A stretch of DNA of 64,000 nt from a virus (IMGVR_UViG_3300046820_002568:1-64000), one strand, 5' to 3'; shown: positions 1,299 to 6,600, counted from the first letter of the stretch. Numbers and translations: made by a program. Notes: a model not told the origin generated them from the sequence alone.

Positions 1299-1306
1299 GT
1301 CATTTG

Positions 1307-1379
1307 TTGCGGAAACTGGAATCGAACCAGATGTCTTCAGCTTATGAGACTGACGAGGAAACCATTTCTCCCTTCCACA
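1307..1379 (-). tRNA. tRNA-Met(CAT), initiator-like, CCA not encoded
   Basis: TGTGGAA/TTCCGCA acceptor stem, TCAGT-CTCATAA-GCTGA anticodon arm, CTGG-TTCGATT-CCAG T arm. Confidence 0.9.
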
Positions 1380-3302: not shown

Positions 3303-3869
3303 ATGAAAACTAAAATTATATACTCTTTTTTATTTATTTTACTTTGTGTAAGTGTAATTGCTTTCAACGCAAAAACTGAAACCACTTGGAGCAAATATTA
3401 TGAACTTGGTAAGGATGAAGGAGCAATTCCCTCTTACAGGATGTTTTACTTAATTGAGACTTACTCAGATAGTTTTGGTGTTCCAAAGCATATTGCATAT
3501 AATGTAGCATTTAAAGAGACAACATATAGGGGTCCTTTGGATACTACATATAATCCTTATAGAACTTCAAATGCCGGAGCTGTTGGAGCGATGCAAATTA
3601 TGCCAAGATATGCATCTTACTTTGCCGGTTTTAATGTATCAAGAAAACAAGTTATGAATGATTTAGAGCTCAATGTTTGGTTATCAATGAAGATTCTTGC
3701 AAAACATTATAAAACCTATAACAACTGGGCTTTGGCTTGTGGGGCATACAATACAGGTAAACCAGTTTTGAATGGTTACGCAAAGTATTGCGGAAGTACC
3801 AAAGATTTTACTAATCAGTGGGTTGGTCCGGATTCTTTGAAGACTCAATTTTCTCTTGCAAAACTCTGA
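3303..3869 (+). CDS. lytic transglycosylase (SLT) with N-terminal signal/anchor
   Basis: Catalytic KET, SNAGAVGAMQIMP and AYNTG motifs; hydrophobic N-terminus; TTTG-N19-TAACTTTG promoter at 3267-3297. Confidence 0.85.
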   Translation: MKTKIIYSFLFILLCVSVIAFNAKTETTWSKYYELGKDEGAIPSYRMFYLIETYSDSFGVPKHIAYNVAFKETTYRGPLDTTYNPYRTSNAGAVGAMQIMPRYASYFAGFNVSRKQVMNDLELNVWLSMKILAKHYKTYNNWALACGAYNTGKPVLNGYAKYCGSTKDFTNQWVGPDSLKTQFSLAKL

Positions 3870-5250
3870 CGAATTCTGTCTGTAACATCTTCAAGAATTT
3901 AATATAAGCCGAATCCTCTTTGTTTGGGTCATACTTATATTTCCCTTTTGGTGGTCTGCTTGACCTTCCAAAGTAATTAAGCCCTGAGATATTTGTAATA
4001 CACTTATGTCCTCCACTGTTTGCTTGGATTATATCCCAAGCTGGAATCTGAATACTATCAAGTTTTTCAAAATCCTCCTCAGAAAGTTCTGAAGTTGGTT
4101 TTGCCATGAGAGCCTTTATCTCCATAAGATACTTTGCCCCATCTTTCATATCCAAAAACTTCTCTCCATAAATTGCCGTGAAATCTTTAAATGTAAAACC
4201 CACCGAACCTTCTTTAGCCGCAGTTTCAGAAATATATTTAATCGTAGAAAGTGGAACCTTTCTATCTTTGAGTTGTTTTTCCCACTTACCAAGTACCTCT
4301 TGGGCAATCTCACCAAGATTAACACCCTTTAGTTCTCTTTCTTTTTTGAATGGATTACAAGAAGCCTGAAGTAATCCTAAAGGCCAAGCAATTACTAAAA
4401 AGTCTGCCTCAGGATTGTTCTTAAATGGAGTATATCTATCATAAGAACCTGGTTTTGTCATTACTCCTCCACCATATTGAACAATAATATTACCCTTAAC
4501 TTCAGGGTATTCTTTCATCTTTTCAACATAAGCTTCTTTGTTCTTTTCAAGAGCTTCAAATCCGGCATATCCTTCATCTTCCATTATCTCCCTTATTTTA
4601 AGGAATAAATTTAAAAGAGAAGGTCTTGACTCCATAACCAGTCTTTCCAAGAAATTTGGTTTGTTTTTGAACGCCAGAAGTAATTTGTTTGTTACAAGTC
4701 CGAGCATCATTCTATTCCTTTTAGCTGAAGAATCTTTATCAAACTTATAAATGTAATTCATCACAATTTCAGGTGTGATTTCATTCTTTGCAAAATCGGC
4801 ACTGTCCACCATTGAAATTGTTGCAACATCTTCTGTTGGAAATAAATCTGACTTTGGTATAATCTGAGAAAGTGTCTCCACATTTGACCTTGACTGTCTA
4901 AATGATTTTGAACCAGTTTCTTCAGCTCCAGCCTGTCTGTCGTGGTGGTCCGTATGAATTATAAACATTGGTTTACCGTGAGCAAAGTCAACAAGGACTG
5001 GCATCACTTCACCATTTGCGTCGGCTTTTTTAACTGCAAATTCCCTGTCACCATATTGTATTACTTCAGTGTCAACAACTTCAATTCCGTTTGACTGAAG
5101 ATAATCTCTCATTGCTATTGCGGTAGTTACTCCGTCAAGCTAAAGGTCCTGGTGAAAGTAGATTTTCGCTTTTTTGTAGCGATTCGCGAGAGATTTAATA
5201 TCTCTCAATCCACTTTCTACCAGGACTATATTGTTTTTTCTGGAAGTCAT
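3811..5250 (-). CDS. DHH-family phosphoesterase interrupted by in-frame TAG (5140-5142); candidate translational bypass, 477 aa
   Basis: Frame from ATG 5250 reads ...KIYFHQDL*LDGVTTAIAMRDY; downstream VLVDFAH, HTDHHD and SGGH motifs. Confidence 0.8.
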
Positions 5251-5254
5251 TAAT

Positions 5255-6157
5255 TTATTTTTTAAATAAATACTTAGTTAATTGTATTAATTCATTTATT
5301 TCTATAGAACATTTAGTTTGTTTAGAACAATTTTCATACTCAGATATTATTTCTAAATTTTCTTTAGCCGCCAATATTTCAGGTAATATTTTGTTTTTGA
5401 ATCCTTCGTGAATACTATATTTATGGTCTATATGATAATATCCCCTACCTATTTTTAAATTTTCAGGATTTATAACTTCTTTATATTTTTTATAATTTTT
5501 GGCAGTAATCATTCTCACCTTTTTTTTGAAATTTTCATATTCTATAATTTCTTCCTCGGTTAAGTAAATTTGTATTGACTCATAAAAACATTTTTCACAT
5601 ATAAATTTTTTACCTTTTTTGTTAAAATTTACATATGTTTTATTACTAATGTGACCATTTTCACATTCTACAGTAAATTTACTATTCTTACCATTAATTT
5701 CTGAAATTGATATTAATTTAAATTTTTTTTCTCTTACTACCTTGTTTAAAAATTCTTCATTAATTATATTTTGATTTTTTTTAATTTTAACCTCTTCTCT
5801 TTTGGATGGGTTTAAATCTCCCTTCCATTTTTGGGAATATAATTTTTTTAATCTACTTACTTCATCTTCACCTAAAAAATCATCCCACTTTCTATTATCC
5901 CCATATCTTCCATTTCCTTCACCAGTACACTGACAAGGTCTACATATTTGAATATCTTTAGACATTTTGTCTTTAACTAAATGACAAGCACTAATAGAAT
6001 GTAATTTATCAGGTGTTTTACAGTTCGGATTATCACAAGACCATATAACCTTTAACGCAGAATTTCCCTTCTTTTCTTTCAGTATTTCCAAGTCAACTAA
6101 CTCATAGTAGACAGGCTTTGATTTTAAATAATAGGGCTTCCAAACAGACTTAATCAT
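5255..6157 (-). CDS. free-standing HNH homing endonuclease with Zn-finger/NUMOD-like region
   Basis: C-terminal YHIDHKYS...ENLEIISEYENCSK HNH core; CxxC clusters; very AT-rich. Confidence 0.75.
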   Translation of the reverse strand: MIKSVWKPYYLKSKPVYYELVDLEILKEKKGNSALKVIWSCDNPNCKTPDKLHSISACHLVKDKMSKDIQICRPCQCTGEGNGRYGDNRKWDDFLGEDEVSRLKKLYSQKWKGDLNPSKREEVKIKKNQNIINEEFLNKVVREKKFKLISISEINGKNSKFTVECENGHISNKTYVNFNKKGKKFICEKCFYESIQIYLTEEEIIEYENFKKKVRMITAKNYKKYKEVINPENLKIGRGYYHIDHKYSIHEGFKNKILPEILAAKENLEIISEYENCSKQTKCSIEINELIQLTKYLFKK

Positions 6158-6228
6158 ACAACTAATATATTATATAAATATATCATTGTAAGTAAAAATC
6201 AATCTAATTCTTTATGAAAATTAAAAAA

Positions 6229-6600
6229 TTATTCTAATGTAAGTAAGTACTTGAGTTTATTAAATCCATGTAACATTTCATCTCTTAAATTTAAGAGGTC
6301 TGAATCTAGTTGTGGGTCAAATACTTCAGTAAGTTCAATCAAGAAAATACAAACTCCATCTATAAAGTTTTGAACGGATATTTCAGAAATGTCCTGTCCT
6401 TGTATTGTGTATCCACCCTGATATGATGGTCTTCCGTGTTTACCCATACATGCTTCAACAAAATCATCAATTAATTCATCTAAATCACCATAAAGATTTC
6501 CGTATGCCTGATGTTTTGCGTAAGATTTTGTTTGCCAGTGTAAAAATTTTAGTTGTATTTGAGATTCAACTAATTTTTTGATTATCTCTGAATTTTCCAT
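6229..6600 (-). CDS. ferritin/Dps-like protein (DUF5856-like)
   Basis: LHWQT.SYAKHQA....Y..LDELIDDFVE and LRDEM...NKLKYLLTL. Confidence 0.75.
   Translation of the reverse strand: MENSEIIKKLVESQIQLKFLHWQTKSYAKHQAYGNLYGDLDELIDDFVEACMGKHGRPSYQGGYTIQGQDISEISVQNFIDGVCIFLIELTEVFDPQLDSDLLNLRDEMLHGFNKLKYLLTLE

Follow-up and report, generated by a model that had tools for sequence, protein, structure and literature searches.

We analysed a 64,000-nt stretch of viral DNA (hereafter the window), which constitutes the first 64 kb of a 139,882-bp contig of 33% GC. Its relatives are freshwater viral contigs of up to 380 kb, and the metagenomes that hold source-like sequence are from freshwater and plankton. 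The locus of interest comprises a nuclease gene and, directly behind it, a gene for a DHH-family phosphoesterase whose reading frame meets a stop codon flanked by two matched leucine codons. The following features are distinguished.

6173-6180, minus strand: TATTTATA, putative phage promoter motif ahead of the nuclease gene
5255-6157, minus strand: nuclease gene, 300 aa, with its TAA stop at 5257-5255
5330-5428, minus strand: nuclease core, D244-H245...N267...N276
5266-5272, minus strand: TATTTAT, promoter-like, within the last nuclease codons and ahead of the DHH start
5140-5250, minus strand: DHH 5' segment carried by the cassette, 36 codons plus TAG, an N-terminal extension
5146-5226, minus strand: conserved mRNA structure, a 19-bp stem closing a three-way junction (5226-5207 pairs with 5164-5146)
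5143-5145, minus strand: predicted take-off codon CTT (Leu36), CTN in 30/30 distinct carriers
5140-5142, minus strand: in-frame stop TAG right after take-off (TGA 21, TAG 6, TAA 3 among 30 carriers)
5137-5139, minus strand: predicted landing codon CTT, CTN in 30/30 carriers
3811-5139, minus strand: body of the DHH-family phosphoesterase; predicted hop product 477 aa
5113-6230, minus strand: presumed mobile cassette of about 1.1 kb, from the stop of a Dps-like gene to about 27 nt beyond the landing codon

The layout described in the initial annotation holds: the nuclease gene ends four bases ahead of the DHH start (TAA at 5257-5255, ATG at 5250), 110 nt separate its end from the gap, TATTTATA lies at 6173-6180, and TATTTAT recurs at 5272-5266 in the last nuclease codons. 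From ATG 5250 the DHH frame consists of 36 codons, the CTT-TAG-CTT junction (5145-5137) and then 442 open codons. A sequencing run resembling the source spans the gap with zero differences (X5 record 21, 5004-5668, depth 4; X3 records 12 and 13 were excluded, as they overlap one side by fewer than 31 bases, and contig joints at 85% likeness were set aside), and the same or variant gaps occur in dozens of independent contigs; as such, the stop is not an assembly error.

The promoter-like motif is enriched, with 28 copies seen against 11.2 expected (0 of 100 shuffles), and it is oriented, 17 of 45 genome copies preceding an ORF start versus 3 of 45 for the reverse complement. TATTTAT lies within 50 nt of the start in 13 of 17 gap-associated nucleases, and stands ahead of the DHH start in 26 of 30 carriers as compared with 24 of 52 gap-less alleles. 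At the gap-less locus L001 the DHH start overlaps the upstream gene (ATGA), and in carriers the TATTTAT supplies the DHH gene with a promoter-like motif. SD-like sites are found at 6 of the genome's 77 long ORFs, a rarity which suggests that the host is probably one not using SD, such as a member of the Bacteroidota; a gap-pattern scan of GTDB for the host gave chance matches only, the pattern being too loose. Elsewhere in the window, a GOLLD RNA (Rfam RF02032, 295 bits) adjoins a tRNA-Met (1396-1788 and 1306-1379, minus strand), and a Dps-like DUF5856 gene at 6229-6600 forms the left boundary of the cassette. The DHH gene (5250-5215) and several neighbours (e.g. 529-490) begin with a similar short leader ending in Glu-Ser, which carriers retain inside the 5' arm of the RNA stem.

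The DHH gene displays the motifs of DHH phosphoesterases (D-x-D, DF, DHH, a downstream Asp and a C-terminal GGH), of which H-x-D-x-D-G, DHH and the downstream Asp are invariant among DHH relatives. In gap-less relatives the first motif reads H-Q-D-L-D-G, and neither Asp varies among 34 diverse members. Pfam DHH recognizes the intact allele with an E value of 6e-4, below the gathering score, and 32 of the 34 relatives match weakly; the match covers exactly the motif region and is lost for the downstream ORF alone. The gap therefore interrupts the first metal-binding motif. Searches of the PDB with the DHH protein, by sequence and by profile, returned no matches. Long C-terminal extensions are present on the DHH bodies of L432/L527, L094 and L102, one with a weak glycoside hydrolase 19 match, and one gap-less member has a LysM match; gap-less relatives are also carried by the huge phages L302 and L303 (LR756502.1 and LR745206.1; 635-642 kb).

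The upstream nuclease and its association with the gap

For the 300-aa upstream protein 106 relatives were found. Invariant Cys pairs occupy the N-terminal two-thirds and the nuclease domain is C-terminal; in this last third D244, H245 and N267 are invariant, and a second Asn, N276, is at least 90% conserved among 56 relatives. A structural model (pLDDT 88.8, confident domain by domain) places strands at 241-245 and 268-272 followed by a helix at 273-279, a beta-beta-alpha arrangement, and in structure comparison (VIA) residues 197-295 match HNH nucleases best, with low Z scores (5h0o, Z 4.2, rmsd 4.3, 78 aligned; 4h9d, Z 3.8). A single-sequence fold of the C-terminal domain was left out for its low confidence. 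This domain is 42% identical over 91 aa to an annotated homing endonuclease of a Klebsiella T4-like phage, whose gene sits between tail sheath and tube, and both of the T4-like phage matches examined are tail-region genes. A Pfam search of the upstream protein gave no HNH match, and Foldseek against the PDB gave no significant match; Atlas features of the nuclease fall in HNH clusters at 0.87, which serves as a lead only. With moderate confidence, we consider the protein a putative nuclease of the HNH fold (HNN) on the basis of its motif and model. The earlier label of HNH stands to that extent, as the reading towards which the conserved motif and the structural matches point weakly (Z about 4, no Pfam match) but consistently.

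The window's nuclease belongs to a fully supported clade of 25 proteins, and 25 of 25 with a readable neighbour precede a gapped gene; four more basal nucleases are likewise found ahead of gaps. The 30 distinct gapped alleles are accompanied by this clade in 16 cases, by another nuclease in 4 and by no nuclease in 10, and the 52 distinct gap-less alleles by this clade in none, by another nuclease in 13 and by neither in 39; the clade was collected by nuclease-first searches, and as the gap-alone class came out of a gap-pattern search, these proportions do not represent population frequencies. In an unbiased, DHH-first search of 80 loci, 76 had neither gap nor nuclease, 3 had a distant nuclease and no gap, and the single gapped locus was also the single locus with the window's nuclease clade. 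The proposed co-occurrence of nuclease and insertion is therefore confirmed in the one-way form that homing predicts, the clade being found always with the gap and the gap being found in 10 of 30 alleles without a nuclease. For MobA the pattern is alike: no phage with the endonuclease lacks the bypass, and several have lost the endonuclease but not the bypass (10.1101/2022.08.31.505936).

A sister clade of nucleases (29-33% identical) stands in tandem ahead of gap-less DHH genes, most of them with recoded 5' ends and some near-normal, and it is evident from this arrangement that the nuclease family can persist without the gap. Among the sister-clade loci (L021, L068, L153, L156, L164, L169, L182, L236, L242 and L285; nucleases 29-38% identical), heavy 5' recoding of the DHH genes reaches about 150 nt beyond the motif, which makes them candidates for intronless homing at the same target. 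Related nucleases also lie head-to-head with distant gap-less DHH genes (L138-L148, L424, L425). At L157 (3001-3560) gap and stem are intact and the upstream nuclease is of the sister clade, an apparent nuclease swap. L231 (about 275-450) has part of a nuclease of the window's clade and, behind it, a DHH gene from which about 22 codons have been deleted in frame, and with them half of the stem, the gap and the catalytic motif; only here is the gap parted from the window's clade, and by deletion of the whole target. Given that all nuclease clades of the family adjoin DHH starts, the family appears tied to the DHH target.

Gap, matched codons and RNA stem

Across carriers the gap measures 6, 8, 9 or 11 nt, and every gap opens with CTN followed by a stop. 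Take-off and landing codons are both CUN in every one of the 30 distinct alleles and in 5 of 6 further loci; a single lineage has ATA at landing. The landing-equivalent site is CTN in at most 12 of the 52 gap-less alleles and TTA or TTG in 37, and Leu codons in the phage's genes of this kind are 77% TTR. The invariance is thus at the level of the codon rather than of the sequence, which indicates tRNA re-pairing. Readthrough of the stop, or a reassigned genetic code, would be compatible with the 6- and 9-nt gaps, which are in frame; however, the 8- and 11-nt gaps are out of frame, which effectively excludes readthrough, all three stops are used, and two extra residues would fall within D-x-D. 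Furthermore, sense-codon versions of the insert gave 14 pattern matches, none of them in DHH genes, and TAG and TGA are ordinary gene-ending stops in the window's genome. We give this reading next to no credence. A recoded genetic code was rejected in its own right: coding density barely differed under tables 15 or 4, and the code is the standard one. Likewise rejected was a prfB-like +1 shift at CUU-stop-C, which would meet a stop in about 5 codons in the 6-nt class and would leave the body out of frame in all classes.

The lineage with ATA at landing comprises 10 loci from several studies, with the stem intact and the bodies open. A hop there would need two-out-of-three re-pairing, and landing of this kind has been reported for some byps in yeast, according to a 2016 review (PMC5009743). 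An SD-like AGGA ahead of take-off was considered as a landing aid and dropped, since the stem accounts for the AGGA and the genome seldom uses SD. With respect to a 3' slippage-barrier structure, carriers (-7.1 kcal/mol) and gap-less alleles (-7.8 kcal/mol) showed no difference. The gaps of L143, L131 and the window resemble degenerate tandem duplications of landing-side bases, with 5, 7 or 11 nt copied and one T making the stop; an origin of the gap by repair at a staggered cut is suggested.

Wholly 5' of the take-off codon lies a strong stem, which in the window has a minimum free energy of -40 kcal/mol (z -12). Folding energies average -33 kcal/mol in carriers versus -8.6 kcal/mol in gap-less alleles, which have no such stem and never fall below -15.5 kcal/mol, and 0 of 400 synonymous shuffles match the energy of the stem. 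The 19-bp main helix ends one base ahead of the take-off codon, and 95% of its cells are paired, falling to 38-50% in slid controls. Covariation between G-C and A-U (18:9, with the swap in 9 of 30 rows) is accompanied by several G-U substitutions; these counts are inflated by relatedness, yet the G-C/A-U swap couples a Val/Ile change with a silent His change. At synonymous positions that vary freely in gap-less alleles, carriers have fixed codons, and the fixed codons form the stem, which would have been built by synonymous and compensatory recoding of the first 36 codons of the host gene. The ATG precedes the stem by 24 nt in the window and by 18-33 nt in carriers, and in most gap-less alleles it precedes the equivalent position by 6-12 nt; the earlier ATG of carriers would keep initiation clear of the stem.

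The sole carrier lineage with a decayed stem (five contigs: L093, L101, L112, L123 and L124) lacks TATTTAT and carries a further nonsense codon in place of a conserved Ser. By its sequence it is clearly a pseudogene, and it is a natural negative control. The alternative that gapped genes are pseudogenes or yield only fragments, the nuclease having destroyed a dispensable gene, is favoured by this lineage, by L231 with its deleted motif, and by the annotation of only the downstream ORF by gene callers. However, all other carriers readable to the end have open bodies of at least 427 codons, and the bodies are under purifying selection (dN/dS 0.04-0.2, including pairs in which both lack the nuclease, although this signal may partly be older than the invasion). 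The covarying stem and an intact 5' peptide are also retained, and reinitiation at 5112 would drop the second catalytic Asp. We therefore judge general decay to be very improbable.

A further alternative is that the gap is removed from the mRNA by stem-guided cleavage and ligation rather than skipped by the ribosome. A stem that stops precisely at the gap's 5' boundary would suit such a process, as would the ATA-landing lineage, for which excision would yield a normal D-I-D motif. It would nonetheless leave unexplained the retention of a stop that switches among three codons and the CUN on both flanks, given the TTR-rich Leu usage, and the gaps vary in length, share no common 3' signal and have no Rfam ribozyme or intron match; this alternative is decidedly unlikely. 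The proposal that hopping rescues the protein, which had been advanced before the stem was recognized, is strongly supported by the out-of-frame gaps, the stop switching and the conserved stem, and a hop over the stop is the most likely reading of the window's DHH gene. In this strongly supported hop, the ribosome would stall with peptidyl-tRNA-Leu on CUN and the stop in the A site; the 19-bp stem would zip as the mRNA exits, pushing the ribosome forward by 6-11 nt; and the tRNA would re-pair at the next CUN, whereby 9 nt specify a single Leu and an intact D-x-D metal site results. At take-off, the ribosome would still cover the stem's 3' arm; as exiting mRNA re-pairs, the ribosome would be pulled ahead over a distance close to that of the protected stretch, which fits the gap lengths of 6-11 nt. 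Pairing of exiting mRNA has been proposed as the driver for gene 60 (10.1101/2024.12.09.627546). The stem may also position the ribosome with such precision that an unmatched landing codon is tolerated.

Mobility of the cassette and its presumed target

The DHH body of the window shares 96% of its amino acids and 90% of its nucleotides with that of the gap-less L001, and its first 36 DHH codons resemble those of other carriers whose bodies are only 50-73% identical. Homology to the gap-less L001, L005 and L006 stops at 6231 and resumes at 5178, and excess mismatches to L001 continue as far as 27 nt beyond the landing codon (7 of 27 versus a 9% background, P=0.009); a parallel pair, L136/L020, has excess mismatches past the landing codon (P=7e-5), and the right-hand tracts terminate between +24 and +27. 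Sister pairs of one gapped and one gap-less allele have bodies that are 90-93% identical in nucleotides, and on the DHH body tree, obtained by a quick tree search, the gap needs 13 changes, at least 8 of them forced by strong branches. Between L527 and L528 no mismatch occurs in any sampled 30-nt block over the cassette of about 1.1 kb, and 2 occur in the 120 nt past the landing codon; their upstream DNA is unrelated and their bodies are 89% identical in amino acids. These mosaic boundaries bear out the initial annotation in that a cassette moves as a unit, but the unit is larger than the nuclease plus 6 nt, as it also takes in the promoter-like motif and the fully recoded DHH 5' end. One gap-less allele, L051, has a carrier-like N-terminal extension and is a possible revertant.

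Directly left of the cassette, L527 and L432 preserve the orphan start of the invaded gene, 18 codons that are close to the gap-less L024 and break off about 9 codons before the His. Between them, this left stub and the ends of the right-hand tracts indirectly confine the presumed initiating cut to a stretch of roughly 70 nt in which the H-Q-D-L-D-G codons lie, and the gap sits in the most conserved coding stretch, inside this bracket. This bracketing supports, short of proof, the suggestion that the DNA encoding H-Q-D-L-D-G is the nuclease's target.

We regard the locus as an independently evolved homing cassette of the MobA/gene 60 type, with a probability of about two in three, and from the sequence comparisons we infer both cleavage by the nuclease and immunity conferred by the gap. 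In a mixed infection, the HNN nuclease would nick or cut a gap-less DHH gene in or near the DNA encoding H-Q-D-L-D-G-V-T. Repair copies in about 1.1 kb comprising the promoter motif, the nuclease, the second promoter motif and the recoded, gapped DHH 5' end, as the sequence mosaics show, and the gap would destroy a recognition site otherwise kept intact by amino-acid constraint. The nuclease is often lost later, and the gap and stem are retained under selection, as the nuclease-free carriers show. Homing by a group I intron or intein was rejected, the gap being 6 nt and without an Rfam match.

It is conceivable that the cassette and the hop are real and that immunity derives from the recoded flanks, as in intronless homing, the gap merely hitch-hiking or restricting the amount or timing of DHH output. 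In its favour, numerous synonymous sites to either side of the gap distinguish carriers from naive alleles, 5' ends that are recoded yet gap-less accompany the sister nuclease clade, and gap and stem persist in the 10 nuclease-free alleles; the last of these is, however, expected anyway, as precise deletion of the gap is rare. Against this explanation stand the absence of the window's clade from all 52 gap-less alleles, with L231 and its wholly deleted target as a partial exception, and the T4 precedent, in which the bypass insert blocked MobA and polymorphisms in the flanks by themselves failed to do so (10.1101/2022.08.31.505936). Immunity from the 6 nt and from the flanks is indistinguishable at the sequence level, as both differ in carriers; on balance we consider the flank-based explanation unlikely.

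Comparison with known recoding and homing systems

To our knowledge, T4 gene 60 and its homologues are essentially the only established cases of programmed bypassing in bacteria, and a limited literature search found no published report of the window's locus. We lean towards the view that the locus represents a second, independently evolved homing-nuclease/bypass element and a minimal natural stop-hop, in which a single stem acts as the spring over 6-11 nt. If this is true, hopping would be a repeatedly invented third route to immunity for homing nucleases, beside introns and inteins. The hop element has three parts (5' stem, stop and matched Leu codons), and nature offers variants that differ in the length of the gap, the identity of the stop and the match at landing, and others that have lost the stem or the nuclease; with so few parts and so many variants, the exiting-mRNA driver model (10.1101/2024.12.09.627546) would be testable in a 120-nt reporter. 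These observations further suggest that homing nucleases may gain self-immunity via a recoding event, and that gene callers truncate such gapped genes and so miss the catalytic motif.

The synthetic stop-hops of Weiss (1987) in E. coli are described, in the 2016 review (PMC5009743), as low-level, unstimulated and artificial, and the same review states that no natural in-frame stop hop was known. They share with the window the matched codons around a stop and the use of 9 nt to specify one residue; unlike them, the predicted hop of the window is natural and conserved and has a dedicated RNA element. According to that review (PMC5009743), the byps of Magnusiomyces mitochondria measure 27-55 nt, involve an unassigned codon and relaxed mitoribosomes and are called context independent, and the candidate bypass of Streptomyces phage Hau3 hinges on a rare UUA codon. 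Both resemble the window in that short inserts are skipped in translation, and imperfect landing matches occur in byps; no nuclease partner is mentioned for either in the text consulted (PMC5009743).

The intronless homing of the T4 seg and mob genes is similar in its free-standing nuclease beside the target gene, its flank co-conversion and the promoter of the downstream gene embedded in the nuclease ORF (PMC2988022). There, immunity arises without a recoding event, whereas the allele of the window carries a gap that needs a translational skip.

The closest counterpart is the T4 MobA element, which pairs the HNH nickase mobA with the 50-nt translational bypass of gene 60 (10.1101/2022.08.31.505936, citing Bonocora 2011). 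The two are alike (10.1101/2022.08.31.505936; PMC2988022) in their size of about 1.1 kb and in the free-standing state of the HNH gene. In both, the element brings its own N-terminus, in which the target region that was deleted returns as a recoded copy, and the gap has a stop behind the take-off codon and a landing codon that matches it. Close relatives have been invaded repeatedly, the nuclease has been lost with the bypass kept, and the insertion lies at a metal-binding motif. The target differs, being an unsplit DHH phosphoesterase rather than a topoisomerase large subunit split in two. The gaps are 6-11 nt as opposed to 20-50, the codons are Leu rather than Gly or Asp, and there is no codon-containing take-off hairpin, no need for a mini-SD and no detected 3' barrier. 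In T4 the 5' stem-loop is not conserved across clades, whereas here a single 19-bp stem, which is strongly conserved, is situated entirely on the 5' side of take-off. Finally, the nuclease domain is N-terminal in Mob proteins and C-terminal in the window's protein. The initial comparison with MobA/gene 60 thus holds as one of functional analogy, not of established homology; with a different target, gap, codons, RNA element and nuclease layout, the element is not a member of that family, and it works like a MobA/gene 60 cassette.
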